A stretch of DNA of 64,000 bases from an uncultured Christensenellaceae bacterium. GTDB taxonomy: Bacteria > Bacillota > Clostridia > Christensenellales > MGBC116941. The notes under the pieces were generated by a model. That model saw only the letters and a program-made list of their open reading frames with translations. It ran no database searches and was not told the origin of the DNA. Shown in pieces: positions 814-48,761 of this stretch (its first letter is position 1; the number at the start of each line of letters is the position of its first letter). Both the position numbers and the translations under genes were made by a program. The stretch lies in assembly GCA_910585035.1 (NCBI GenBank), contig CAJUEF010000004.1:1499-65498 (forward strand), given 5' to 3'.

Positions 814-2178
814 ATGGAATTTATAGAAACGTTTGTAGCAACAACAAATTCCTGGCTTTGGGATTATTTGCTGCTGTTTTTATTATGCGGAACAGGAATA
901 TATTTCACAATAAGGTTGAAGTTTGTTCAAGTTACAAGGTTTAGAGAAGGAATGAAAAGGGTGTTTGGCGGTATTAAGCTTTTTGGAACAGATGCAGACG
1001 GGAATGGAATGTCATCGTTTCAGGCGCTTGCCACTGCTGTTGCAGCCCAGATAGGTACAGGAAATCTTGCCGGAGCAGCTACCGCTATTGTATCCGGCGG
1101 TCCAGGAGCTATATTCTGGATGTGGCTTTCTGCTTTTTTTGGAATGGCTACTATTTTTGCTGAGGCAAGTGTTGCCCAAAAATTTAAAAAGACTGTTGAC
1201 GGAGAGGTGACAGGCGGACCTGCTTATTATATAAGAGCTGCTTTTAATGATAATGGCTTTGGGAAATTCCTTGCTGCGATATTTTCTATTCTTATTATTT
1301 TTGCTCTTGGCTTTATGGGGAACATGGTTCAGTCTAACTCCATTGGAAGTGCGTTTCAAACAGCTTTTGGCGTTAAGGCATGGATTGTAGGTCTTATAGT
1401 TGCTGTGGTTGCAGGGTTCATATTCATTGGAGGAATTAAGAGAATTGCTTCTTTTACTGAGAAAATAGTTCCTCTTATGGCTGTTCTTTATATAGTTGGC
1501 GCTCTTGCTATAGTATTTATGAACTTTAATAAAATCGGTTATGCTTTTCAGCAGATTTTTATGGGTGCATTTTCTCCTAAGGCCCTCGGCGGTGCATTTA
1601 TCGGTATAACGGTTCAAAAGGCAATGCGTTTTGGCGTTGCAAGGGGCTTATTTTCCAATGAAGCCGGCATGGGTTCAACACCTCATGCACACGCTGTTGC
1701 CAAGGTTGACCATCCTTGTGAGCAAGGTACGGTTGCTATGATTGGTGTGTTTATTGACACCTTTGTTGTGCTTACTCTTACTGCGCTTGTAGTTATTATT
1801 TCAGGACTTAATGTTGGAACGGAGCTTGAAGGAATTAATCTTACCCAAGCTGCATTTTCCCAATATTTTGGAAGCTTTGGTAATGTGTTTATAGCTATTT
1901 GTCTTTTGTTCTTTGCTTTTTCCACAATTATAGGATGGTATTTCTTTGGTGAAGCAAATGTTAAATATCTCTTTGGTAAAAAGGCAGTTCCTGTATATGC
2001 TATTTTGGTGTTAGGTTTCGTTCTTCTTGGCTCTTTCTTAAAAGTATCCCTTGTTTGGGATTTATCAGATATGTTTAACGGACTTATGGTTATTCCTAAC
2101 CTTATAGGACTTAGCGCCCTTAGCGGTGTGGTTGCTATGTTATATAAAGAATATAATAATAAAAAGACACGCCTTTAG
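814..2178 (+). CDS. alanine/glycine:cation symporter (AGCS family)
   Basis: 454 aa polytopic membrane protein. The family-typical N-terminal region SSFQALATAVAAQIGTGNLAGAATAI..GGPGAIFWMW is present. RBS gggggat lies upstream of the ATG. Confidence 0.9.
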   Translation: MEFIETFVATTNSWLWDYLLLFLLCGTGIYFTIRLKFVQVTRFREGMKRVFGGIKLFGTDADGNGMSSFQALATAVAAQIGTGNLAGAATAIVSGGPGAIFWMWLSAFFGMATIFAEASVAQKFKKTVDGEVTGGPAYYIRAAFNDNGFGKFLAAIFSILIIFALGFMGNMVQSNSIGSAFQTAFGVKAWIVGLIVAVVAGFIFIGGIKRIASFTEKIVPLMAVLYIVGALAIVFMNFNKIGYAFQQIFMGAFSPKALGGAFIGITVQKAMRFGVARGLFSNEAGMGSTPHAHAVAKVDHPCEQGTVAMIGVFIDTFVVLTLTALVVIISGLNVGTELEGINLTQAAFSQYFGSFGNVFIAICLLFFAFSTIIGWYFFGEANVKYLFGKKAVPVYAILVLGFVLLGSFLKVSLVWDLSDMFNGLMVIPNLIGLSALSGVVAMLYKEYNNKKTRL

Positions 2179-2271
2179 GCTACAAAAGAAAAATAGACAA
2201 ATATTACTGTTGTAATTATAATAAAAAACTAGTATGATTGGTGTATAATTACAGATGGAGGTAAGCTGTAA

Positions 2272-3111
2272 ATGAGTAATTTCAGAGTGGTGGCAGACAG
2301 CTGTTGCGAAGTTACAAGGGATATGATAGGTGATATGGATTTAAAATTTGTTCCCTTTTCCATGACGGTGGATGACACTGTGTTTGTTGATAGTGAAGAT
2401 TTTGATAACAAGGCTTTTATTGAGGCTATGAAAAACAGTCCCAACTGCGCTAAATCCGGATGCCCTACTCCTTTTGATTTTGCAGAAAAAATAGACCCGG
2501 AAAAACAAACCTTTATAATAACCATTTCCGGAGCTCTTAGCGGATGCTATGAAAGCGCTACCATGGCAAGACAGGATGTGCTGGAAAAACACCCTGAGGC
2601 AAAAATTTATGTGTTTAATACCAAGTCTGCTGCTGCCGGAGAAGCTTTGGTTTTTTTAAAAATTAAAGATTGTATAGAAGAGGGAAAATCCTTTGAAGAG
2701 ATAATTGAGATAACTGAAGCATATATAAAAGATTTACAAACGCTTTTTGTTCTTGGAAGTCTTGACAATATGGTGAAAAACGGCAGAATGTCTAAAATCG
2801 CAGGCTCGGTTGCTTCATTGCTTTCTATACATCCTATTTTAATGGGAGACAGAAATGGAGAAATCGGCATTTTGGAAAAGTGCGTAGGCAGAAAGAAGGC
2901 CCTTAATAAGCTTGTTGAATCTGTTGGGAAAATGGGTGTTTCCATTTCCGGTAAACGTGCTTTTGTTACTCATTGCAACAACCTTGAAAGGGGAATGGAC
3001 ATTAAAGCAAAGCTGGAAAAGATGTATGACTTTTCTGAAGTGTTGCTTGTGGAAAACCGCGGACTTGGAACAATGTATGCCAATGACGGCGGAGTTATTG
3101 TTTGTTTTTAG
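2272..3111 (+). CDS. DegV family fatty-acid-binding protein
   Basis: 279 aa. The N-terminus ...VVADSCCEV...F.PFSMTVDD and the overall length and layout are typical of DegV/EDD-fold proteins. Confidence 0.85.
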   Translation: MSNFRVVADSCCEVTRDMIGDMDLKFVPFSMTVDDTVFVDSEDFDNKAFIEAMKNSPNCAKSGCPTPFDFAEKIDPEKQTFIITISGALSGCYESATMARQDVLEKHPEAKIYVFNTKSAAAGEALVFLKIKDCIEEGKSFEEIIEITEAYIKDLQTLFVLGSLDNMVKNGRMSKIAGSVASLLSIHPILMGDRNGEIGILEKCVGRKKALNKLVESVGKMGVSISGKRAFVTHCNNLERGMDIKAKLEKMYDFSEVLLVENRGLGTMYANDGGVIVCF

Positions 3112-24971: not shown

Positions 24972-25006
24972 AAAAAAACCACGGAGACAGCAATTCCGTG
25001 GTTTTT
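24972..25006. terminator. bidirectional intrinsic terminator (leuB + / XRE gene -)
   Basis: An A run, then ccacgga (24979-24985) / tccgtgg (24995-25001), then a T run. Confidence 0.75.
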
Positions 25007-25044
25007 ATTTTGCATTATATACGAAAAATATTTATAAAATAATT

Positions 25045-25389
25045 TTAATTATTAGTTTGTTTTTGCGATTGCATTTCATTTTGCGCTATTAATAAATCGT
25101 TAGCTACTTTAATGAGGTAATCCTGCAAAGGAGGACAAAGCTTATTAAAGATTTCTAAAAGGTCCTGCTGCTTTTTCTGGTTGTCCAAAAACATTTCTCC
25201 TTCGCCTGTACGAAACCAATGTTCATTTACGGAAAATTGAGAGCAAATGATTTTAATATTTTGTTCCGTTATTTTAGAACCGGCTGTTTCCAGATAACTG
25301 ACAGTATTTTGTTTTAGACCAATTTTTTCAGCAAAGACTTTTTGGCTAAGTTTTAACGCTTTTCTAAGCTCTTTAATACGTTTGTTCAT
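25045..25389 (-). CDS. XRE-family helix-turn-helix transcriptional regulator (phage-repressor-like)
   Basis: IKELRKALKLSQKVFAEKIGLKQNTVSYLE is an HTH_XRE motif. The C-terminal part has no recognisable domain. Confidence 0.85.
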   Translation of the reverse strand: MNKRIKELRKALKLSQKVFAEKIGLKQNTVSYLETAGSKITEQNIKIICSQFSVNEHWFRTGEGEMFLDNQKKQQDLLEIFNKLCPPLQDYLIKVANDLLIAQNEMQSQKQTNN

Positions 25390-25455
25390 TACTATACCTC
25401 CTATAATACAATATCAATAAATGCTAATAAAAGCAAGAAAAAAATCATGGAACAG

Positions 25456-25484
25456 TTGACAACTATCAACATTTAAGATATTAT
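25456..25484 (+). promoter_or_regulatory. candidate sigma-A promoter with an overlapping inverted repeat (operator-like)
   Basis: TTGACA (25456-25461), a 17-nt spacer, then TATTAT (25479-25484). The inverted repeat gatattat (25477-25484) / ataatatc (25492-25499) overlaps the -10. The region lies between the divergent XRE gene and the small ORF. Confidence 0.5.
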
Positions 25485-25531
25485 CAAGTTAATAATATCT
25501 ATAATTGATGAATTAAAAAGAAGGTTTTAAT

Positions 25532-25714
25532 ATGGCAAGTAAAAATAATGATATACAATCTATTTTTAATAAACTCTCTGAACAAAACAAAGATATATTA
25601 ATTTTGGTAGCAACAAGCGTGAAAGTTGCACAGGATATAAACGAGCAAAATAAAAAAACAAGTAAAAACATTAGTCAGGTATCTTGTAAAATTAATAATC
25701 TAAGTGAAGAATAA
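25532..25714 (+). CDS. hypothetical small protein (60 aa)
   Basis: The ORF has a plausible RBS (gaagg) and lies downstream of the candidate promoter. There is no recognisable motif and the composition is low-complexity N/K-rich. Confidence 0.4.
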   Translation: MASKNNDIQSIFNKLSEQNKDILILVATSVKVAQDINEQNKKTSKNISQVSCKINNLSEE

Positions 25715-25757
25715 AAGGTAATATTTTGGAAAAGCAAAATAAAGGAAGTGAAAATAA

Positions 25758-26048
25758 ATGAAATCTCTTGGTCTTGTGCGTAAGGTGGACTGTTTGGGAA
25801 GAATTACAATTCCCAAAAGAATAAGAGAAGCCTGTAATATTCAAAAAGGCGATTATCTTGAAATATGTTTAAATAATCAATCAGAAATTATTTTTGTGCC
25901 ATGGCCAAACAAGTCGTATTCAAATATGGGAAATAAGGCAGAGGTTTTCAGGTCTAATCTGATTAATAAATTTGCTGAACAAAAAAATATAAATATTGAA
26001 AAAATTATTGAAATAATTGAAAATGAATATAAAAATTTAGATAATTAA
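25758..26048 (+). CDS. AbrB/MazE/SpoVT-family DNA-binding domain protein
   Basis: The N-terminus LVRKVDCLGRITIPKRIREACNIQKGDYLEI is a swapped-hairpin AbrB-type motif. RBS aaaggaag is present. Confidence 0.75.
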   Translation: MKSLGLVRKVDCLGRITIPKRIREACNIQKGDYLEICLNNQSEIIFVPWPNKSYSNMGNKAEVFRSNLINKFAEQKNINIEKIIEIIENEYKNLDN

Positions 26049-26127
26049 ATTACCTAATTTTTATTTTAAATTTTTTAATTTAAATATCATATTTTTTTGC
26101 CTGTATTAAATAATTCTTAAATTTTAT

Positions 26128-26150
26128 AACGCTTTAACAAGCGTTTTTTT
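26128..26150 (+). terminator. intrinsic terminator after the AbrB-like gene
   Basis: aacgctt (26128-26134) / aagcgtt (26139-26145) followed by a T7 run. Confidence 0.65.
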
Positions 26151-26253
26151 ACTTTCTGTCCCTGTTTTTTTTAAAAGAAATACATTATTAATAAAGTGTG
26201 TTTGTTATGGGAATGTCTATAATAAATGCACAAATACTTATTTGAGGATAATT

Positions 26254-26513
26254 AAGTTTTCTTTTGCTTACTTTTCTTTTTCTTAAAAGAAAAAATAATA
26301 AAATGTTTTTGTGGGTGAAATGACTATATAAAAGGAAAAAATTGTTTTAGAGGGTGAAATAAGTTTTCTTTTGCTTACTTTTCTTTTTCTTAAAAGAAAA
26401 AATAATAAAATGTTTTTGTGGGTGAAATGGCTATATAAAAGGAAAAAGTTGTTTTAAAGGGTGAAAATAAGTTTTCTTTTGCTTACTTTTCTTTTTCTTA
26501 AAAGAAAAGTAAG
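26254..26513 (+). repeat. tandem array (about 2.4 units of 107-108 bp), each unit starting with a family A hairpin repeat
   Basis: aagttttcttttgcttacttttctttttcttaaaagaaaa recurs at 26254, 26361 and 26469. Units 1 and 2 are near-identical. Only unit 3 keeps the perfect stem cttacttttctttt (26482-26495) / aaaagaaaagtaag (26500-26513). Confidence 0.9.
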
Positions 26514-26617
26514 AATTCATTGCTCTAATAATTATTATGTATTATAATAATTATCATACAAATATGCTTATATATAAAGCTTTGAAATAATCGTAATTAC
26601 TAAGAAGGAGATGTGTT

Positions 26618-27310
26618 ATGCAATATTCAAAGGAACTTGAAGAGATGGAATGTGTGCTTCAGGGTACTAACCACGGTCCTGCTCCTATTCCCGTAGAGGG
26701 CAAGTGGGTGCAGTCTACTCAGATAAGCGATGTAAGCGGTCTTACTCACGGGGTGGGCTGGTGCGCACCTCAGCAGGGCGGCTGTAAGCTTACGCTTAAT
26801 GTTAAAAACGGAATAATAGAGGAAGCTCTTATCGAAACAATAGGATGCAGCGGAATGACTCACAGCGCAGCAATGGCAAGTGAGATACTTCCCGGCAAAA
26901 CTCTCCTAGAGGCTCTTAATACCGACCTTGTATGCGACGCTATTAACTGCGCTATGAGAGAGCTGTTTTTGCAAATAGTATACGGCCGCACTCAAACAGC
27001 TTATTCACAGGGTGGTTTGCCTGTAGGCGCAGGCCTGGAAGATTTGGGCAAGGGCCACAGAAGCCAGGTTGGAACCATGTATGGCAGCAGGCTCAAAGGC
27101 GCAAGGTATATGGAAATGGCGGAAGGCTATGTGCTGGAAATCGGTCTTGATGAAAACAGTGAAATAATTGGTTATAAGTTTGTCAACATCGGTAAAATGA
27201 TGGACGCTATAAAAAAAGGAGTCGACCCTAAAAAGGCATTTGAAGATAATGTGGGAACTTACGGACGCATTGACGAAGCTGCAAAGCTAATCGACCCTAG
27301 AGAGAAATAG
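26618..27310 (+). CDS. IscU/NifU-like Fe-S scaffold-domain protein with a unique C-terminal extension of about 100 aa
   Basis: GVGWCAPQQGGCKLTLNVKNGIIEEALIETIGCSGMTHSAAMASEILPGKTLLEALN..LVCDAINCAMREL parallels the IscU layout (a Cys before the first strand, GC...A.S, a late Cys). RBS aaggag is present. Confidence 0.7.
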   Translation: MQYSKELEEMECVLQGTNHGPAPIPVEGKWVQSTQISDVSGLTHGVGWCAPQQGGCKLTLNVKNGIIEEALIETIGCSGMTHSAAMASEILPGKTLLEALNTDLVCDAINCAMRELFLQIVYGRTQTAYSQGGLPVGAGLEDLGKGHRSQVGTMYGSRLKGARYMEMAEGYVLEIGLDENSEIIGYKFVNIGKMMDAIKKGVDPKKAFEDNVGTYGRIDEAAKLIDPREK

Positions 27311-27324
27311 GAGGAATAAAGACA

Positions 27325-28323
27325 GTGATACAATTTGAAGGTTATGATAGAAGAATAGATAACATCAATGCTGTTTTAAAGGAAAACGGTTTTTCCTCTC
27401 TTGAAGAGGTGAAGCAGCTTTGCGAGAGCAAAGGCATTGACGTGCATAAAATTGTTTTCGGAGTGCAGCCAATTGCGTTTGAAAATGCCGCATGGGCATA
27501 CACTCTTGGTGCGGCTATTGCCATTAAAAGAGGGGTTAATAAGGCGAGTGACGCAGCAGCCGTAATTGGCGAAGGCTTGCAGGCGTTTTGTGTTCCGGGC
27601 AGCGTGGCTGACCAGAGAAAGGTTGGCAGAGGCCATGGAAATCTTGGAGCAATGCTTTTAAGAGAAGAAACAGACTGTTTTGCTTTCCTTGCGGGACATG
27701 AATCCTTTGCGGCGGCAGAGGGAGCAATAGGCATTGCAAGGGCTGCAAACAAGGTTAGGCAAAAGCCTCTTAGGGTAATTTTAAACGGCCTTGGAAAAGA
27801 CGCTGCTTACATTATAAGCCGTATAAACGGTTTTACTTTTGTGGATACCAAGTTTGATTATGACACTGATAGCCTAAGTGTGGTATCGGAAAAAGCATTT
27901 TCCAAAGGCGAAAGAAGCAAGGTTCGCTGCTATGGCGCCAACGATGTCAGAGAAGGCGTTGCTATCATGATTAAAGAGGGCGTGAACGTGTCAATTACAG
28001 GCAATTCCACAAATCCTGTGCGTTTTCAGCATCCTGTTGCCGGCACTTATAAAAAGTGGGCGGTGGAAAACGGCTTTAAATATTTTTCTGTGGCATCAGG
28101 AGGAGGAACAGGAAGAACGCTGCATCCTGATAATATGGGTGCAGGGCCTGCATCCTACGGGCTTACCGATACCATGGGAAGAATGCACTGTGACGCCCAG
28201 TTTGCAGGGTCATCCTCTGTTCCCGCTCATGTTGATATGATGGGGCTTATAGGTATGGGCAACAACCCAATGGTGGGAACCACCGTTGCCGTTGCCGTTG
28301 CCGTTGAAGAGGCAATGAAATAA
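27325..28323 (+). CDS. GGGtGRT-motif protein (uncharacterised conserved family)
   Basis: GTG start 9 nt after AGGAGG. The motif SGGGTGRT is encoded at 28096-28119 (GGGTGRT at 28099-28119). I recall a family named after this motif with no assigned function. There are no TM segments. Confidence 0.7.
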   Translation: MIQFEGYDRRIDNINAVLKENGFSSLEEVKQLCESKGIDVHKIVFGVQPIAFENAAWAYTLGAAIAIKRGVNKASDAAAVIGEGLQAFCVPGSVADQRKVGRGHGNLGAMLLREETDCFAFLAGHESFAAAEGAIGIARAANKVRQKPLRVILNGLGKDAAYIISRINGFTFVDTKFDYDTDSLSVVSEKAFSKGERSKVRCYGANDVREGVAIMIKEGVNVSITGNSTNPVRFQHPVAGTYKKWAVENGFKYFSVASGGGTGRTLHPDNMGAGPASYGLTDTMGRMHCDAQFAGSSSVPAHVDMMGLIGMGNNPMVGTTVAVAVAVEEAMK

Positions 28324-28365
28324 CAAAGGCAGTATAAAAGATGTGACTGCTAAGAGGTGGTTCTT

Positions 28366-28596
28366 ATGAAACAGAATAAAGGAGGAGCAATTCTCTGGGG
28401 CGGAATAGTGGTTGCTCTGGAACTGATATTTTTTCTCGGTCTTATTGTTGCCGCTTTTGCATTAAAGGATATGGTAATGGCAATTACTGCAATACTTCCC
28501 TTGCTTGTTGCTGTTTTTACGGCTTATTTTCTATGGCAGAGGCTTGGTGAAATTAAGGAAGAGCAAAAGCATGGCGATGAATATGATAAATATTAA
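28366..28596 (+). CDS. small two-TM membrane protein
   Basis: 76 aa from ATG 28366 (RBS aagagg 8 nt upstream; the track's alternative GTG is at 28357). It has two hydrophobic helices and a charged C-terminal tail. Confidence 0.55.
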   Translation: MKQNKGGAILWGGIVVALELIFFLGLIVAAFALKDMVMAITAILPLLVAVFTAYFLWQRLGEIKEEQKHGDEYDKY

Positions 28597-28612
28597 TTAA
28601 AAGGAGAATATT

Positions 28613-28924
28613 ATGATTATTGTTACAGTGGATACGGTTTCCGGCAGACAGCTTGAAACTATGGGTTATGTTAAAGGAGCGACAGTGCGTTCAAAAAACC
28701 TTGGCAAAGATATTGGCGCAGGGCTGAAAACCATTGTTGGCGGCGAGCTTAAGGGATACACTGAAATGCTTAATGAGGCGCGCCAGGAAGCCGTTGCAAG
28801 AATGGTGGATGAAGCTATGGCTTTAGGAGCAGACGCAATAGTGGGTCTTAGGTTTTCCTCTTCAGCGATAATGCAGGGAGCTGCCGAAGTGGTGGCATAT
28901 GGAACTGCTGTAAAGTTTGTGTAA
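28613..28924 (+). CDS. YbjQ/UPF0145 family protein
   Basis: 103 aa. ...GYVKGATVRSKNLGKDIGAGLKTIVGGELKGYTEMLNEARQEA...GADAIVGLRF is the typical YbjQ_1 pattern. Confidence 0.85.
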   Translation: MIIVTVDTVSGRQLETMGYVKGATVRSKNLGKDIGAGLKTIVGGELKGYTEMLNEARQEAVARMVDEAMALGADAIVGLRFSSSAIMQGAAEVVAYGTAVKFV

Positions 28925-28935
28925 AAATTAAAAAA

Positions 28936-28970
28936 GTACGGCGCAGGAATTTTTGCGCCGTGCTTTTTTT
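28936..28970. terminator. bidirectional intrinsic terminator
   Basis: gtacggcgca (28936-28945) / tgcgccgtgc (28954-28963), with an A run before and a T7 run after. It lies between convergent operons. Confidence 0.8.
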
Positions 28971-28998
28971 AATAAAATAAATAGATTTAATCTTTTAT

Positions 28999-29295
28999 TT
29001 ATTCTTTGTTGGCTTTTTTAATTTTTTTCTTGGGACAGGTATAGTTTAAAACCTCGTGACTGTCGCATAACCCTTCTGTGGTTGGATCTGTGACTGCATT
29101 CCAAATACTTATAACTATAAGACCAAGCACATATGGATTTAGCGCTGCGCTTTTAAAAAGGTTAAAAACAATAGTCCAGGTTGTCAGGTCTTCAAATGTC
29201 AGCTTTGCATAAGTAAGCATGGGCATAATTATAGCGAGCAAAAGCTGAACAATGAATACAGGATTTTTAAACCTGACCTTCCAGTTTATTTTCAT
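28999..29295 (-). CDS. phage-type holin (phi LC3 / Phage_holin_1-like)
   Basis: MKINWKVRFKNPVF...NAVTDPTTEGLCDSHEVLNYTCP matches the remembered NWKVR.KN...DPTT.G..DS...L.Y..P holin signature. ATG 29295 is preceded by AAGGAGG. The longer track ORF (to 29490) overlaps the upstream gene. Confidence 0.8.
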   Translation of the reverse strand: MKINWKVRFKNPVFIVQLLLAIIMPMLTYAKLTFEDLTTWTIVFNLFKSAALNPYVLGLIVISIWNAVTDPTTEGLCDSHEVLNYTCPKKKIKKANKE

Positions 29296-29311
29296 TTTGC
29301 TAACCTCCTTG

Positions 29312-29899
29312 TCACCACCTGCTGTAATGACCCCGAACATCCACATGGGTGAAATAGCTGTATTTGCCAACTCCGCCGCTGTCTCCCACAGTTTTATCAG
29401 CAATTTCATACATTTTTTCCGCAGAAATGTCTTTGGTCTGAATATCCGCAGCTGCAGCATAAAGGTGCTGTGATTCTTGAGCGCCTTCAACCTTTTTGTT
29501 ATATGAAGGTGTGCGGTATCCGCTCATAATGGTTACAGGAACATTTCCGTATGCAGAACGAACCTTTTCCAGCATATTCATTAAGGACTGTAAATTATTC
29601 CAATATTCCGGCGGAACATCGGTTCCGTCCTTACATTTGAATTCAGACATTTTAAAATGTTCACTGCGGGGTTCTTCTGAGCCTTGTGAAATTCCCAGTT
29701 TTTCATAGGTATCAGGTCCCACAATGCCGTCGGATGCAATGCCTTTTTCCTGCTGAAATTTTTTAACTGCAGACTGGGTTTGCTTGCCGAATATAGAATC
29801 CAGGTTTCCTTTATAAAAGCCTAAAGACTGCAACTTTTTTTGAGCGTCAAGAATTTGACTGCTTTTCATCATTGGATCTGTTAATTTTAGTAATTTCAT
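29312..29899 (-). CDS. peptidoglycan-binding domain + M15A (D-Ala-D-Ala carboxypeptidase-like) peptidase; endolysin-like
   Basis: N-terminal PG_binding_1 repeat (LQSLGFYKGNLDSIFGKQTQSAVKKFQQEKGIASDGIVGPDTY). C-terminal M15A zinc motifs SQHLYAAAADI and FTHVDVR. Confidence 0.8.
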   Translation of the reverse strand: MKLLKLTDPMMKSSQILDAQKKLQSLGFYKGNLDSIFGKQTQSAVKKFQQEKGIASDGIVGPDTYEKLGISQGSEEPRSEHFKMSEFKCKDGTDVPPEYWNNLQSLMNMLEKVRSAYGNVPVTIMSGYRTPSYNKKVEGAQESQHLYAAAADIQTKDISAEKMYEIADKTVGDSGGVGKYSYFTHVDVRGHYSRW

Positions 29900-30001
29900 T
29901 TTTATTCCCCCTTAATGCTTAATATTATTTTAATTTAAAAATTGTGCGTGTTTATCAGGAGATACTGCTTTTTATTAAAGGGGACTGGATTTTGATATAT
30001 T

Positions 30002-30030
30002 AAAAAAGCTGCCCTTTTGAGCAGCTTTTT
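30002..30030 (-). terminator. intrinsic terminator after murC
   Basis: aaaagctgc (30003-30011) / gcagctttt (30021-30029), 7 nt beyond the murC stop on the - strand. Confidence 0.7.
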
Positions 30031-30036
30031 AACAGT

Positions 30037-31398
30037 TTAATCCAGGAGTATTTTTACTTTTTCGCCTATATCGCCGGCGCCTATTGCAAGAATAATATCT
30101 TCATTTTCTTTTTTATCTGCAAAGTATTCTTTAACGCCTTCAAAGTCAGGAATATAAACGGCGTTTCCTCCTTTTGAGTTGACTGTTTGTACAATATCTT
30201 TTGCATGAATTTTTCCTTCGTCTTTTTCTCTTGCCGGATATATATCTGTAACTATAACCTCATCTAAATCCTTTAAAGCTTCCCCAAATTCATCGAGATG
30301 ATTTATGGCGCGGGTAAAGGTGTGGCATTGAAATATTCCTATTAGTCTGTCATGAGGAAGCGGCTCTGCGGTTTTAATACATGCTCTTATTTCTGTAGGA
30401 TGGTGAGCATAATCATGAATTAATGTCATGCTGCCAACCTTTCCGTAGTATTCAAAACGTCTTTTAGTAAGTTTGTATTCTTCTAAGTCTTTACAGCTGT
30501 TTTCTACAGGAATGCCTAAATTATAGCATACTATTATGGCGGCAAGGGCATTTTGAACATTGTGCTCTCCGGGCACGTTTAAGTTACATGAGGACAGCAC
30601 TTTTCCATTTCTCAGCACATTAAAGGTTGTTGAGCCGGAAGAATGATGAACGATATCCTTCGCTTGCCATTCCCCCTCTCCGTTTACGTTGTAGGTTTGA
30701 ACGCTGCAATTTACTTTTGCCGCAATATTACGAACTCGGTCGTCACCTGAGTTGGCTATAAGCAAGCCTGATTTTGGAAGCTGTTTTGCAAAAGTTAAAA
30801 ATGAAGCTGTGATATTTTCCATGCTGCCGAAAAAGTTTAAATGGTCATTATCAATATTATTTATTACAGCCATGGTGAGACTGAACTGATGATAGCTGTT
30901 TTCATATTCACAGGCCTCGGCTATAAAAATATTGCCGGAGCCAATGTGGGTTCCGCCGCCTTTAAAAAAGGGAACGCTTGCGCCAATATGAATAGTGGGG
31001 TCAACATTTTCTTTTAAAGTGATTAATCCTATCATAGAGGTAATGGTAGTTTTGCCGTGACAGCCGGCAATGCCTATCGCAGTTTCAAATTCTTTGGTGA
31101 TTTTGCCTAAAAAGGTTGCTCTGTCCACGGTCATTATACCTTTGCGGCGGGCTTCCCTTAATTCTTCATTATCTTCAGATATGGCAGCGGTATGAACCAC
31201 TATATCCTGATCCTTTATATTTTCTTTCTTCTGCCCTATTATAACCGGAATACCTTTTGATTCAAGATATTCCGTAAAAGGTGATTTTGCCATATCCGAG
31301 CCGGTGATTTCATGGCCTCTGCTTTTCATAATAAGCGCAAGGCCGTTCATGCTGGAACCGCCTATGCCGATAAAATGAATTTTTAATTTGTTTTCCAT
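30037..31398 (-). CDS. murC: UDP-N-acetylmuramate--L-alanine ligase
   Basis: IHFIGIGGSSMNGLA, GIAGCHGKTTITSM and the Mur-ligase middle and C-terminal domains. Confidence 0.92.
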   Translation of the reverse strand: MENKLKIHFIGIGGSSMNGLALIMKSRGHEITGSDMAKSPFTEYLESKGIPVIIGQKKENIKDQDIVVHTAAISEDNEELREARRKGIMTVDRATFLGKITKEFETAIGIAGCHGKTTITSMIGLITLKENVDPTIHIGASVPFFKGGGTHIGSGNIFIAEACEYENSYHQFSLTMAVINNIDNDHLNFFGSMENITASFLTFAKQLPKSGLLIANSGDDRVRNIAAKVNCSVQTYNVNGEGEWQAKDIVHHSSGSTTFNVLRNGKVLSSCNLNVPGEHNVQNALAAIIVCYNLGIPVENSCKDLEEYKLTKRRFEYYGKVGSMTLIHDYAHHPTEIRACIKTAEPLPHDRLIGIFQCHTFTRAINHLDEFGEALKDLDEVIVTDIYPAREKDEGKIHAKDIVQTVNSKGGNAVYIPDFEGVKEYFADKKENEDIILAIGAGDIGEKVKILLD

Positions 31399-44474: not shown

Positions 44475-44537
44475 TTATAAGTAAAAGCAGTGGGCGTAAA
44501 TGCGTCTCTTGCTTTGCAAAGGAAGGGTAAACAAATT

Positions 44538-45173
44538 ATGAAATACATAATCGAAGAATATAAAAAAGAATGGCTGTTTTTTAAAAAGGAAATGAAAGTT
44601 ATCTTTTTGATAATGCTTGTTGGGCTTATCTTACTTATGGTAGGGTCACACTTTCTTTTGTCTGCGCTTATTAAATCGCAACCGGGCTTAATTAACAGTA
44701 TTGCAGCTACTATACAAGAGGCATTAAGCGGTGTGGATCTGGCAAATGATTCCCCGTTTACATCTGTTATAAAGCTGTTTTTTAATAATGCAAGGGTGTG
44801 TCTTATATCCATAAGCCTTGGAATAGTTCCTTTTTTATTTCTTCCAATTTTTACATATTTCATAAATGGCGCAATTGTTGGAGCGGTAACTGCTTTTAGT
44901 TCGGCGGTTGCAAATTTTGGCCTTTCTTTCTTTATGGCTTCCTTGCTTCCCCATGGAATATTTGAGTTTCCGGCAATAGTTTATGCATGCGCTCTTGGCA
45001 TATATTTGTGCAAAGAGAATACTAAAATTGTACTGAAAAAAAGTGATAAACGCTTTATTAATGTTGCCATTGATACTCTTAGAAGTTATGTGATTGTAAT
45101 ATTACCTTTGCTGGTTTTTGCTGCAATAATAGAAGGAACTATTACTATTAATATAGCAATGAAATTTATTTAA
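44538..45173 (+). CDS. spoIIM: stage II sporulation protein M
   Basis: FFNNARVCLISISLGIVPF...INGAIVGAV...LPHGIFEFPAIVYACALG is the SpoIIM/DUF95 pattern. ATG 44538 is preferred over the upstream GTG at 44490. Confidence 0.8.
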   Translation: MKYIIEEYKKEWLFFKKEMKVIFLIMLVGLILLMVGSHFLLSALIKSQPGLINSIAATIQEALSGVDLANDSPFTSVIKLFFNNARVCLISISLGIVPFLFLPIFTYFINGAIVGAVTAFSSAVANFGLSFFMASLLPHGIFEFPAIVYACALGIYLCKENTKIVLKKSDKRFINVAIDTLRSYVIVILPLLVFAAIIEGTITINIAMKFI

Positions 45174-45190
45174 CCGGATATAACAAATAA

Positions 45191-45219
45191 AAAAACCTCA
45201 CATATGTGGGGTTTTTTTT
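45191..45219. terminator. bidirectional intrinsic terminator (spoIIM + / fur-family gene -)
   Basis: An A run, then the cctcacatatgtgggg palindrome (45196-45211), then a T8 run. Confidence 0.8.
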
Positions 45220-45257
45220 ATTTAAAATTATTAATATTTTTAATTTCAACACAGATA

Positions 45258-45656
45258 TTAATTTAAAATTTCATCATTTTTATAGCACTCAGAACAAATG
45301 CCTTCAAATAATGCCCGGTGTCTTTTAATGTGAAAGCCGGTATCCTTTGTTATTTGGTCGTCGTATTCGGGATTGTAGCTTAAAGGAGCGTCAAAAACCT
45401 TTTTACAGTTAGAACAAACCATATGATAATGAAAGTCCAAGCGGGAATCATAGCGTTCCGCGGGAGAAAGCTTTACATTTGCAATTTGACCACTACTATA
45501 AAGGGCTCCAAGATTGCGGTATACTGTTCCTCTGCTAATTTTGTTATCTACTTTACGCACATCTAAATAAATCTGGTCAGCAGTTGGATGGTCGCATCTT
45601 GCCATTACAGCATCAAAAATTAACTGGCGTTGTTTTGAATTACGTTGATTTTTCAT
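45258..45656 (-). CDS. Fur-family metalloregulator (Fur/PerR/Zur type not resolved)
   Basis: N-terminal winged helix (SKQRQLIFDAV...HPTADQIY...ISRGTVYRNL) and two CxxC pairs (CSNCKK, CSECY). Confidence 0.85.
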   Translation of the reverse strand: MKNQRNSKQRQLIFDAVMARCDHPTADQIYLDVRKVDNKISRGTVYRNLGALYSSGQIANVKLSPAERYDSRLDFHYHMVCSNCKKVFDAPLSYNPEYDDQITKDTGFHIKRHRALFEGICSECYKNDEILN

Positions 45657-45910
45657 TATGCCCCCTTTTAATATTAGGACTTTGTATTATTGTAAATATA
45701 TTTTTTATTACTGTCAAGAATAAATCATGCAGAAAATATTTAACTGTAAAGTTTATGAGTAAATATTATCCTATATCTTTAGCTTAAATTTATTGCAGAA
45801 TTATCTAGGATTTTGGAAAATATTTCCACTGATGCAAGATATAAAATCTTAAAAGAAATTAAGTATTTTTAAGGTTTTAATATCTTTTCCATAAATGTTC
45901 CAAATAAATT

Positions 45911-45955
45911 TTAGTACATATATTTACTAAAGTCAATAGTAAATATATGTACTAA
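45911..45955. promoter_or_regulatory. perfect 19-bp inverted repeat (operator-like) upstream of a small XRE regulator
   Basis: ttagtacatatatttacta (45911-45929), a 7-nt spacer aagtcaa, then tagtaaatatatgtactaa (45937-45955). The repeat ends 50 nt upstream of ATG 46006. Confidence 0.55.
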
Positions 45956-46005
45956 TAACGGCGCAGAATATGCGTATCGTGTTATTTTATTTGAGGAGCT
46001 TTTTT

Positions 46006-46209
46006 ATGGAAATATACGTGCGTAGAATTCGTGAGTTGCGCGAAGATAATGATTTTACACAAACCCAAATAGCAAAATATCTTGGAACTTCACAAACTAT
46101 GTATGCCAGATATGAAAGGGGAGCTAACGAGCTTCCTGTTCGCCATTTAATAGCCCTTTGTAAACTTTATCATGTGTCTGCTGATTATATTTTAGGATTA
46201 AAAAGTTAA
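46006..46209 (+). CDS. XRE-family HTH transcriptional regulator (67 aa)
   Basis: IRELREDNDFTQTQIAKYLGTSQTMYARYERG is an HTH_XRE motif. ATG 46006 lies 7 nt after GAGGAG. Confidence 0.85.
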   Translation: MEIYVRRIRELREDNDFTQTQIAKYLGTSQTMYARYERGANELPVRHLIALCKLYHVSADYILGLKS

Positions 46210-46231
46210 TCTGTTCCGGTAAAATTTGCTT

Positions 46232-46999
46232 TTATGAATAAAGAGCCGCTTTAAGCAGAGGCAATTTGTTTTCATCGGAAGAATATATGTCTATTTGTTG
46301 AATATTATCATCGCTATTTAGCATGCCTTTTTCACAAAGTATATTTTTTAAGTGCCGGGACGTTCCTATGCTGCCGTCAACTATGATCACGTTTTTACCA
46401 AAGTTATTTAAAACCTTATTAATGGAATTTTGGGCAAAAGCGTAATGAGTGCAGCCAAGCACACATGAATCTATGGGAATATCTTTAATTGCAGACAGTT
46501 TATTTGTTAGGTATTCTTCCATAACAGGCCCCTCCCAAACGCCTTTTTCAATTAGCGCAGCAAGCCCCTCACAGGGCATTTCTATAACGTCTTTTTCTGC
46601 GTTAAGATTGCAAACCAAATTTATGTATTTATCCTGACGGAGAGTTGCGGGAGTTGCCATTACAAGAATCTTTCCGCCGTGAGCATTTTTCATGCCGACT
46701 TTTACCGCAGGCTCCATTGATACAAATGGAATTGTATACATACTTCTAAGCCGTTTAACGGATACGCCTGTGGCTGTGTTGCAAGCTATAACTATTGCCT
46801 TTACATTTCGCTGCACAAGAAAATCCACACAGGCTTTTGACAAATCAAATATTTCACTTTTGCTTTTAATTCCATATGGAGCGTGTTTATTATCCCCGTA
46901 ATATATAAAATTTTCATGGCAGAGAATGTTTTTGGCAACCTTTAAAACCGCTATACCTCCCATGCCCGAATCAAATATTCCTATTGGTCTTTTATCCAT
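46232..46999 (-). CDS. murI: glutamate racemase
   Basis: IGIFDSGMGG, catalytic ACNTA and GCTHY. Confidence 0.92.
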   Translation of the reverse strand: MDKRPIGIFDSGMGGIAVLKVAKNILCHENFIYYGDNKHAPYGIKSKSEIFDLSKACVDFLVQRNVKAIVIACNTATGVSVKRLRSMYTIPFVSMEPAVKVGMKNAHGGKILVMATPATLRQDKYINLVCNLNAEKDVIEMPCEGLAALIEKGVWEGPVMEEYLTNKLSAIKDIPIDSCVLGCTHYAFAQNSINKVLNNFGKNVIIVDGSIGTSRHLKNILCEKGMLNSDDNIQQIDIYSSDENKLPLLKAALYS

Positions 47000-47049
47000 T
47001 TAAAGCTTCCTTTACAAGATAGTCGATTTTTATATTTTAGCAAAAAAAA

Positions 47050-47970
47050 CTATTTTTGTATAGTGGATGCAACAGCGCTTGCAAGGTATGGAACGCTTCT
47101 TAAAACCTCGTCCATATTATTGCCGGTATATCCCATTTCAATGAGTATTGCGCGTTTGGATATATGCTGGTTATATCTGCTTTTATTTACACGCACGTTT
47201 TTTGCAAGTCCTTTTACTTGGGAATTTATGTTATCTGTTATTTTTTTTGCATATGCGTAGTTAGATTTATAATCGGGTCTTGGGAGGATTGGTGTGCCGT
47301 TATTGCCTTCTCCGGTGCCTACAACCACCATAATTTTTGCAACGGGATTTCCGTCTACAGTGACTGTTTGCCCCTCCATATAATCAAAGGCATCCCTGTG
47401 AATGTCAATATATATATCATACTCTCCGTCGTTTTTTATACGTTTCTCCAACATGGAAAGGGAGCGGGTGTAGGCAGTGCCGAGCTTTGGGGGTTCAAAA
47501 TTTGTTGTGTCGTGAACAACAGAGACACCGTGATTATTTTGAAGGCTATCAGCCAGCTCTTTGCCTACCTTTGCCACGCTTTTATCCTGTTGGTTTGTTC
47601 TATAGCTGCCGCTTTCTTCGTATTTGTAAGTGTCGGTTTGTGCATATGCTTCTGTTATATGGGTGTGGTATATAAGTATTTTTGCATTGCCCTTTGGTAT
47701 TGCAGGAGTTATGTAGCTGTTGTCTATTTCCAGTTTTATCTCTGTGTCCGTGTCCTCATCTTCCTCATATATTTTTGAAAACACGTTTTTGCTTTCACCG
47801 CTTAAATCTAAAATGGGAATTTGATTTTTCATTAGCAAGTTTGGGTCTGTTAGCTTGCTTACAGCTATGGAAGTCACACTTTCCTTAAATTTTCCGCCGC
47901 CTCTTACGGCAAGGCTCATAAGAACTACCATGCCTACAAGTAATACGGATACCCATGCTTCTTTTTTCAT
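47050..47970 (-). CDS. spoIIP: stage II sporulation protein P
   Basis: N-terminal TM anchor, ILIYHTHITEAY and IDIHRDA, as in the SpoIIP amidase-like family. Confidence 0.85.
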   Translation of the reverse strand: MKKEAWVSVLLVGMVVLMSLAVRGGGKFKESVTSIAVSKLTDPNLLMKNQIPILDLSGESKNVFSKIYEEDEDTDTEIKLEIDNSYITPAIPKGNAKILIYHTHITEAYAQTDTYKYEESGSYRTNQQDKSVAKVGKELADSLQNNHGVSVVHDTTNFEPPKLGTAYTRSLSMLEKRIKNDGEYDIYIDIHRDAFDYMEGQTVTVDGNPVAKIMVVVGTGEGNNGTPILPRPDYKSNYAYAKKITDNINSQVKGLAKNVRVNKSRYNQHISKRAILIEMGYTGNNMDEVLRSVPYLASAVASTIQK

Positions 47971-48080
47971 AGTGAATACACCTCTTAATAAATTGTACTA
48001 AGGACAAGTTGTTATTATGAACACTAAACAAAAAACCACATAAAATGATAGTGTAGAAAAACATATAAAGGAGAGTTATC

Positions 48081-48761
48081 ATGGCAAAAGTACTTATATA
48101 CAACAACGATGAAAATAAAATGGAAACCTTTGAGAGAAAAGAAACAGACGCTATGCCTTACATCACAGGCAGAAGCATGACAGTAGGCGAATTTAGGGGC
48201 AGCAGCAAATCCAATGTGCTTTGGTCTGACAAGACCACAATGGAGACATGGAATGCTTTTAGAAGGTATTACGGGGATCCTATATTTATTGGCTATGCCT
48301 TTAAACGTATTTGGGAAGGCGGACACGGTAAACAAAGCCAGCACTATGCGGGAGTTTCTTTTGATACAGGTCAAAATTTAAGTACATCCGGGAGGAACAG
48401 GCTTCACAGCGCTGCCGTATCCTTTGGCAGATGGACTTATGTTGAACCTAAAAGCCTTACTCCAACCTGGGTGCATTTTGACAAGCGTTACGGCACACCG
48501 GCTTGCTCTTCCGGCGGTTACCCTGTGAGGAGAAAAGGAGATAAGGGAATTTATGTGCTGGTTCTTCAGGACGCTCTTAACGCTCTTGGCTTTTCAACCA
48601 GGACTTTGGATGGAATATTTGGTGACTGGACTTTGAATGCAGTAAGACAGTTTCAAACGGATAGCGGACTTACTTCAGATGGAATAGTGGGCTGCGGTAC
48701 ATGGAGAAGTCTTACGGACAAAGCTGTTAAGATTGGCAGAACAAGTACAGTAATTGACTAA
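48081..48761 (+). CDS. M15A peptidase-like domain + C-terminal peptidoglycan-binding domain protein
   Basis: SQHYAGVSFD ... TWVHFDKR (H-x6-D ... H zinc pattern), then PG_binding_1 (LQDALNALGFSTRTLDGIFGDWTLNAVRQFQTDSGLTSDGIVGCGTW). There is no signal peptide. Confidence 0.7.
   Translation: MAKVLIYNNDENKMETFERKETDAMPYITGRSMTVGEFRGSSKSNVLWSDKTTMETWNAFRRYYGDPIFIGYAFKRIWEGGHGKQSQHYAGVSFDTGQNLSTSGRNRLHSAAVSFGRWTYVEPKSLTPTWVHFDKRYGTPACSSGGYPVRRKGDKGIYVLVLQDALNALGFSTRTLDGIFGDWTLNAVRQFQTDSGLTSDGIVGCGTWRSLTDKAVKIGRTSTVID

Follow-up and report, generated by a model that had tools for sequence, protein, structure and literature searches.

An uncultured Christensenellaceae bacterium carries, in a stretch of 64,000 nucleotides from contig CAJUEF010000004.1 (hereafter the window, whose positions are given without a prefix), a two-gene cassette that encodes a wall peptidase and a phage-type holin. 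We favor the explanation that this cassette is a holin-gated autolysis or export module exapted by its host, with the holin as the selected core and the peptidase as a dispensable accessory, and we consider this the probable one. By comparison of sequences the cassette has been shown to be isolated from any prophage, ancient and under purifying selection. The preliminary description of this DNA, which was made from the letters of the window, had wavered between a domesticated lysis module and the last remnant of a decayed prophage. The phage origin has stood, with homologues of both genes residing in prophages; neutral decay has not, as the cassette is fixed, intact and dominated by synonymous variation and its holin persists across species.

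The two coding sequences, assigned from open reading frames (ORFs) and Pfam matches, lie on the minus strand. That of the peptidase (195 amino acids) occupies 29312..29899 and that of the holin (98 amino acids) 28999..29295; the 16 nt between them hold a ribosome-binding site (RBS) for the holin, AAGGAGG at 29304..29310 (minus strand, by direct reading of the sequence), 8 nt before its ATG. The earlier assignment of a phi-LC3-type holin with its own AAGGAGG, 16 nt downstream of the peptidase, is borne out by these coordinates and by matches to Pfam Phage_holin_1 (PF04531; 6e-24, 84.7 bits against a cut-off of 22) and NCBIfam holin_phiLC3 (TIGR01598; 48.1 bits against a cut-off of 39.7). The holin has a basic N-terminus, hydrophobic segments at approximately residues 12-32 and 49-70 and a charged, basic C-terminal tail, and it keeps all 30 family-invariant columns of an alignment with 14 homologues.

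Its partner had been described as a leaderless protein with a PG_binding_1 domain and an M15A peptidase domain, and this too was confirmed. Pfam places PG_binding_1 at residues 14-68 (7e-18; ~29696..29860, minus strand) and Peptidase_M15_3 (PF08291) at residues 83-187 (6e-24), the latter corresponding to the M15A/LAS catalytic domain at ~29339..29653 (minus strand; Pfam and alignment). The zinc ligands of the H-x6-D...H pattern (H145, D152 and H185), together with D187, are invariant in an alignment of 39 sequences, and the protein matches PHROG 894, annotated 'endolysin', at 4e-36. The best solved relative by sequence is the zinc DD-peptidase of Streptomyces albus G (1LBU; M15A), which has the same two-domain plan. 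An AlphaFold model of the peptidase (predicted local distance difference test score 90.8) also finds 1LBU as its top Foldseek match (E 3e-11), with Hedgehog N-terminal LAS domains next; the template modelling score is only 0.49, probably due to the orientation of the two domains. The N-terminus is hydrophilic, with a maximum 15-residue hydropathy of 0.32 in the first ~55 residues, and the protein is therefore without a signal peptide. Of the features by which a canonical endolysin is recognised, the absence of a leader or signal-arrest-release domain and the adjacency of a holin are present here, and a location inside a phage or prophage genome is not.

Within the species of the window, both genes are maintained. 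Eight contigs of this species from different samples (GCA_948509565.1 included) all have an intact murC - peptidase - holin - ybjQ order (8/8). In clusters formed at 90% identity, variants of the 195-residue peptidase and of the 98/124-residue holin differ by substitutions only; the shorter proteins in these clusters have the look of truncation at contig ends or of an adapter artefact. Counted as unique sites in this species, segregating sites number 5 synonymous and 0 non-synonymous in the peptidase, 10 and 3 in the holin and 21 and 2 in murC. Random single-base changes in these genes would be synonymous in ~21% of cases; for peptidase and holin together, 15 of the 18 segregating sites are synonymous (binomial P ~2e-7 against this expectation). 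At the level of polymorphism, current purifying selection on both cassette genes is in our view shown. One apparent holin variant, P0122 (from an ENA contig of 770 nt), ends in DRKSTRLNSSH, which is the translated Illumina adapter GATCGGAAGAGCACACGTCTGAACTCCAGTCAC; a frameshift allele was accordingly rejected in favor of an assembly artefact.

A related species, represented by contigs L086 and L087 (MurC 80%, PurR 90% and YbjQ 76% identical to their counterparts in the window), carries at the same locus the single closest holin (P0123, 69%). Gene order in L086 is murC, a flavodoxin gene (minus strand), a 47-codon ORF, the holin, ABC/GntR genes (minus strand) and ybjQ. The DNA that is homologous between the window and L086 comprises the holin, the first 20 peptidase codons with their RBS and two upstream boxes; the 47-codon ORF of L086/L087 is a stub of the peptidase, the remaining ~460 nt of which are gone. 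We considered whether the C-terminal half of the stub corresponds to the peptidase C-terminus (FSHI against FTHV) and rejected this, the alignment score of 18 being equalled by 87% of shuffles, so that demonstrable homology is confined to the first 20 codons. Between the two species pS is 0.66-0.89 in all genes, that is, saturated; the holin has a pN of 0.23 against a pS of 0.89, and its 95-codon ORF has stayed open at 67% identity across this divergence. L086 and L087 are themselves ~4% divergent, and between them the holin has 6 synonymous and 0 non-synonymous differences, and the stub 1 and 5; in the 154 nt that precede the stub, a single base differs. On these counts, the stub drifts neutrally and the holin is under purifying selection within that species. 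The preliminary description had held that inactivating mutations in relatives would speak against a functional module; the peptidase has indeed been reduced to a stub in L086/L087, but the holin is intact. As these contigs keep an intact, selected holin beside a dead stub, the component selected in the long term is the holin, probably through membrane permeabilisation or export, and the peptidase would be an accessory that the window species still uses.

The two host holins also resemble each other in ways that set them apart. Both have Cys77 and Cys87 in the tail (29029-29067, residues 77-89; L086:8073-8111), where the two sequences read GLCDSHEVLNYTCPKK and GFCDSEQALGYTCPKK. Among 121 holins, Cys87 is restricted to the host copies and absent from the phage-side members of the set; Cys77 occurs in 8/121. 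Neighbour joining of these 121 sequences puts the two host copies in a clade of their own, each being the nearest neighbour of the other. A scan of JGI metagenomes with the holin gave a best match of 62% and no further host-resident orthologues.

The origin of the cassette in a phage is shown by the location of the nearest homologues of both the holin and the peptidase in prophages. Leaving aside the L086-type match, the best holins outside the species itself (64-68% identical) sit in evident prophages (L089-L095), where tape-measure and tail genes, a 106-residue ORF, the holin and a GH25/CHAP endolysin are followed at some distance by an integrase and an S24 repressor. The nearest peptidases in prophages have 55-58% identity, and in L088 and L184 relatives at 48-56% are encoded directly behind genes for a tail fibre or a tape measure. 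The best peptidase match, P0002 (56%), stands in L088 after tail-fibre-like genes and before a 98-residue membrane ORF, and P0098 stands after a tape-measure/tail block and before a 101-residue ORF. Among cultured phages, the closest holins are those of Psychrobacillus phage PVJ1 and Bacillus phage Mgbh1 (56%), and the closest catalytic domains those of the Faecalibacterium phage FP_oengus endolysin (45%) and of microvirus peptidases. The closest peptidase relatives overall (55-59%) are mostly 257-341 residues long, with a longer N-terminal region and extra matches to PG-binding domains, and identity falls directly from 100% to at most 59%. A scan of viral contigs with the peptidase returned four weak partial matches only, and neither protein matches a PADLOC defence model. 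A lysis block of prophage type, whose holin is 64% identical, is also present in a relative of the host (L185; Na/Ala symporter 86%, DegV 81%). This block (L185:2-2780) has a lysin with repeated PG_binding_1 domains, a Phage_holin_1 holin and a TcdE-family Phage_holin_4_1 holin in tandem; it continues with an ImmA-like M78 peptidase and an S24 repressor and adjoins the DegV and Na/Ala symporter genes, which are syntenic with window 814-3111.

The order of the two genes, peptidase before holin, had been remarked on as the reverse of what is usual in phages. The order is as described, and the phage loci of this holin family do run from holin to lysin, but it is not peculiar to this cassette: L183 has it too, as do, among the phage relatives, L088 and L184. 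Since it is native to the phage relatives of the peptidase, the reversed order carries no special meaning. The direct pairing of a phi-LC3 holin with an M15 peptidase is uncommon: an M15 domain lies near the holin in 10 of 160 viral and metagenomic phi-LC3 holin loci and immediately upstream of it in none. In L183:410-1578, a 193-residue PG_binding_1 and M15 peptidase (58%) is followed after 12 nt by a phi-LC3 holin (57%) and a 96-residue protein with transmembrane and coiled-coil segments. This tight pair, which is preceded by an NhaC-like transporter gene with its terminator and followed by TetR and lipoprotein genes, apparently again lies outside a prophage; it comes from sample SRR14289618, as does L181.

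The pair in the window has the layout of a self-contained transcription unit. It is flanked upstream by murC (30037..31398, minus strand) and downstream by ybjQ (28613..28924, plus strand), which is convergent with the holin; both had been named before as housekeeping flanks, and Pfam agrees. Between murC and the cassette lies the intrinsic terminator of murC (29995..30036, minus strand), a hairpin followed by a U-run with a folding energy of -17.3 kcal/mol (z -4.6; 0 of 200 shuffles fold equally well). At the other end lies a bidirectional intrinsic terminator (28938..28961, both strands) common to the holin and ybjQ, with folding energies of -20.7 kcal/mol (z -4.8) on one strand and -26.1 kcal/mol (z -5.7) on the other. 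Given terminators on both sides, the peptidase and holin are a separate unit of transcription. A presumed promoter was recognised at 29919..29949 (minus strand) by its conservation in L086/L087: box 1, ACGCAC (29949..29944), a spacer of 16 nt, and box 2, TAATATTAA (29927..29919), after which comes the peptidase RBS, AAGGGGG. The arrangement ACGCAC-N16-TAATATTAA is identical in L086/L087 in both boxes and spacing (L086:7655-7690), despite the saturation of synonymous sites. Near the boxes there is only a weak sigma-70-like match (TAAACA-16-TAAAAT, 29954..29927). GC content, third-position GC content and codon usage of the cassette are like those of host housekeeping genes.

Pfam scans of ~50 ORFs across the 64 kb window, part of the annotation being taken from matches on an identical contig of the same species, detected neither an integrase nor any terminase, capsid or tail gene; the earlier statement that such genes are missing from the window is upheld by these scans. 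The genes recognised are housekeeping and sporulation genes: ilv/leu, those for GlnRS/GluRS, a prsA-like gene, EF-G, spoIIM, spoIIP and fab/acc by Pfam, and purR, spoVG, glmU, prs, pth and mfd from Pfam matches on the identical contig. No tRNA genes were found in the window, Rfam elements are absent from its 20-36 kb portion, and direct repeats around the cassette that might resemble att sites are short and at chance level.

The origin of such a module can be pictured, and its working can be modelled on what is established for canonical holin-endolysin pairs. A temperate tailed phage would have integrated beside murC in the ancestor of at least two species of a spore-forming Clostridia lineage, and the rest of the prophage would subsequently have been lost. 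What the host would have kept is a self-contained operon that has conserved upstream signals of its own and a terminator at either end. The M15A-type peptidase would fold and accumulate in the cytoplasm, where it would be kept because it is without a signal peptide. A class-II-like holin would build up in the membrane and permeabilise it at a trigger level; PG_binding_1 would target the released peptidase to the wall, peptide stems or cross-links would be cut, and the outcome would be lysis or local wall opening of the producing cell. Expression of the cassette, the opening of holes by the holin, cleavage of the wall and the occasion on which the module fires are all inferred. That occasion may be spore or mother-cell lysis, altruistic lysis, non-lytic export or service to a phage-like element elsewhere; for the mother-cell lysis, eDNA release and toxin-style export named earlier, neither an adjacent cargo gene nor a recognisable sporulation-sigma promoter was found.

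Several known systems invite comparison. The phi-LC3 siphophage lysis cassettes of Bacillota have holins of the same family, size and invariant residues with a leaderless peptidoglycan hydrolase adjacent. In those phages, however, the holin stands between tail genes and an endolysin that is mostly of GH25/CHAP or amidase type, in the order holin to lysin, whereas the locus described here runs from peptidase to holin, has no phage genes around it and has its own terminators and upstream boxes. The two-domain plan of the peptidase, with an N-terminal PG_binding_1 and a C-terminal LAS zinc peptidase domain, is that of the zinc D-Ala-D-Ala carboxypeptidase of S. albus G (MEROPS M15A, 1LBU) and of FP_oengus-type Peptidase_M15_3 endolysins; the S. 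albus enzyme, though, is secreted, and the peptidase here is leaderless. In Rhodobacter capsulatus, the holin and endolysin genes of the gene transfer agent (RcGTA) are encoded apart from the structural cluster. The RcGTA pair is, like ours, stand-alone and host-maintained with no phage genes alongside, but the protein families are unrelated, and the organism here is not known to carry a gene transfer agent. Sporulation mother-cell hydrolases such as CwlB, CwlC and CwlH are of Amidase_3 type under a SigK promoter; here the enzyme is an M15 peptidase and there is no SigK match, the SigK-type pattern AC-N16/17-CATANNNTA being absent, by eye, from the conserved upstream region. With spoIIM, spoIIP and spoVG in the organism, the cassette may nonetheless play a part in sporulation.

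Precedent for host use of a holin and hydrolase comes from diderms and from clostridial pathogens. The Serratia hydrolase ChiX is an M15-type metallopeptidase. Type 10 secretion (Serratia ChiW/ChiX, the Yersinia Tc lysis cassette and the Salmonella chitinase system; PMC10847048, PMC10109510) employs a chromosomal holin and peptidoglycan hydrolase for the use of the host, and in the reference list of PMC9527704 the Serratia partner ChiX appears as an endopeptidase. A host-kept holin and hydrolase outside a prophage are found here as well; those systems, however, belong to diderm hosts and have spanins and adjacent cargo genes, whereas the present host is monoderm and no linked cargo gene adjoins its cassette. 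In the Clostridioides difficile pathogenicity locus (PaLoc), TcdE/TcdL (PMC6200909, PMC9527704) likewise include a phage-derived holin kept by the host outside a prophage, and TcdE with the endolysin fragment TcdL resembles the holin and peptidase stub of L086/L087; a holin-associated endolysin 'has been fragmented or deleted' in some clostridial systems (PMC9527704). The PaLoc differs in having a Phage_holin_4_1 holin, adjacent toxin genes and a dedicated sigma factor, none of which is present at the locus here. We do not assign the cassette to TcdE/TcdL, type 10 secretion or the lysis genes of a gene transfer agent, since it departs from each of them (in holin family, in cargo or in its monoderm host). 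It is an exapted phage holin/endolysin of a generally known sort, its proteins being ordinary members of the phi-LC3 holin and M15A/LAS families, and it involves no new mechanism.

Other explanations of the data deserve weighing. The cassette might be a non-lytic export device like type 10 secretion or TcdE, through which the leaderless M15 peptidase is itself exported here, other cargo passing in L086/L087, and in which the peptidase remodels or locally opens the wall. In line with this idea, selection has preserved the holin of L086/L087 next to an endolysin that has degraded, the derived Cys77 and Cys87 in the tails of the host holins hint at altered gating, and a review describes Clostridia as having no twin-arginine translocation and as secreting through holins. 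We nevertheless regard export as rather unlikely: a cargo gene adjoins the cassette in neither species, the holin is of the Phage_holin_1 family and TcdE of Phage_holin_4_1, and with all 30 invariant residues kept nothing marks a change from lytic phage holins. A bolder proposal, which we put forward as doubtful, is that, in this uncultured, deep-branching family of gut or rumen-type spore formers among the Clostridia, the phi-LC3 holin is now a host gene in its own right, has acquired a lineage-specific Cys77/Cys87 tail and a non-sigma-70 promoter of its own, and serves as a regulated membrane gate for which the M15 peptidase is one interchangeable client. It might then be a Gram-positive counterpart of type 10 secretion, passing leaderless hydrolases or other cargo, or a trigger of mother-cell lysis and spore release, a process whose mechanism is, to our knowledge, poorly known in Clostridia. 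It is improbable that the cassette renders a lysis service to a phage-derived element elsewhere in the genome (a gene transfer agent, tailocin or defective prophage). The endolysin-less holin of L086/L087 would not release particles without another lysin, even though such a service would suit a module that is complete, canonical and selected without a local partner in 64 kb, relatives of the host do carry prophages with the same holin family, and the RcGTA lysis genes set a precedent.

The two remaining explanations grant the cassette less. It could be functionless prophage scrap that has not yet decayed: it is short, no other prophage remains accompany it, the peptidase is destroyed in L086/L087, the cassette is absent from three other relatives and the slot between murC and ybjQ is variable, with different junk in each species. 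Scrap would hardly be expected, however, to display polymorphism of the mostly synonymous kind that both genes have here and the holin has in L086/L087 (the dead stub has 1 synonymous to 5 non-synonymous differences), a holin ORF still open after saturating synonymous divergence, conserved upstream boxes and host-like codon usage, and we judge this explanation very unlikely. Alternatively, two related prophages could have integrated independently at the same hotspot and both decayed to their lysis genes, in which case it would be in phages that the signal of selection between species arose. The holins of the two species are hardly closer to each other (67-69%) than to phage holins (64-68%), and the slot is a variable region; yet the host holins form an exclusive clade, Cys87 is absent from phage-side holins, homology reaches into non-coding boxes with identical spacing, and polymorphism within each species shows ongoing purifying selection in each host. 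Independent integration seems to us highly improbable, and retention by the host would stand even in that case because of this selection within each species.

The reading that we prefer, a host-exapted module gated by its holin, also has findings that weigh against it. The peptidase is dispensable in the L086/L087 species, and the polymorphism sample from the window species is small (18 sites). The upstream boxes show no convincing fit to sigma-70 or to the consensus sequences of SigE, SigK, SigF, SigG or SigH. No cargo or partner gene (toxin, chitinase or bacteriocin) adjoins the cassette here or in L086, its neighbours here being murC, ybjQ and the GGGtGRT operon. In three further relatives (L180, L181 and L182; MurC 75-79%) there is no cassette next to murC, so that the lineage can do without it; the comparison of synteny in relatives that had been proposed earlier thus returned a divided answer, with the holin at the same locus in L086/L087 but the cassette missing beside murC in these three. 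Finally, MurC distances are nearly star-like, so that a single gain followed by losses and a gain in the ancestor of the window species and L086 are indistinguishable.

Holins used by their hosts are known from a handful of pathogens, namely TcdE, TpeE and the type 10 secretion systems of Serratia, Yersinia and Salmonella. The present locus adds one that belongs to another holin family and to a commensal-type lineage of uncultured Clostridia, and whose evolutionary signature is unusually clean: a holin intact and selected in two species, and an endolysin selected in one and drifting as a stub in the other. This pattern, the holin being selected in both species and the endolysin in one only, supports the idea that it is the holin, not the lysin, that bacteria domesticate. 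The two species also offer a natural pair, with and without the lysin, for the study of host holin function.

With regard to the host itself, a search of GTDB species representatives with MurC found relatives of at most 45% identity only and no conserved synteny, the nearest being Christensenellales-like metagenome-assembled genomes of Clostridia; short 'peptidase' matches in these relatives are unrelated PG_binding_1 proteins. Among 5.8 billion proteins, only some eight MurC sequences fall within 55-80% identity, which points to a deep-branching and rarely sampled lineage.

The slot between murC and ybjQ has a different content in different species: the cassette in the window (28925-30036), flavodoxin, holin and ABC/GntR genes in L086 (L086:7032-10184) and decayed TetR/ABC-transporter fragments in L180 (L180:2622-3870). 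We considered the ABC/GntR genes of L086 and the ABC fragments of L180 as an ancestral arrangement and rejected this, there being no homology between the contents of the slots. The flavodoxin gene is ~13% divergent between L086:7092-7550 and L087:6129-6587, on contigs that otherwise differ by ~4%, which suggests local recombination or allele replacement.

Beyond ybjQ, the block at 26618-28924 encodes a NifU-like protein of 230 residues, GGGtGRT (PF14057, 1.7e-189), a 79-residue membrane protein and YbjQ. Its proteins are 86-94% identical to those of L180:3871-6227, apart from the small membrane protein at only 53%, and the GGGtGRT pair is missing in L086. Next to this block, an island at 25000-26600 has a GC content of 28-31% against ~39% and is absent from the syntenic stretches of L086 and L180. 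It encodes an XRE-family helix-turn-helix protein (25045..25389, minus strand), a 60-residue ORF (25532..25714, plus strand) and an AbrB/MazE-like protein (25758..26048, plus strand), and is perhaps a small insertion of a mobile or toxin-antitoxin-like kind, with no link to the cassette. The possibility that this island, 3.6 kb away, is the other end of a prophage was rejected: the housekeeping genes GGGtGRT and ybjQ intervene, and the island is also missing in L086, which has the holin.

A further PG_binding_1 domain occurs in the window at the C-terminus of a divergent 226-residue protein with no recognised catalytic domain (48081..48761), in a region (44490-48761) that also contains spoIIM (44490..45173) and spoIIP (47050..47970, minus strand). 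Since spoIIM, spoIIP and spoVG are present, the organism is likely a spore former.

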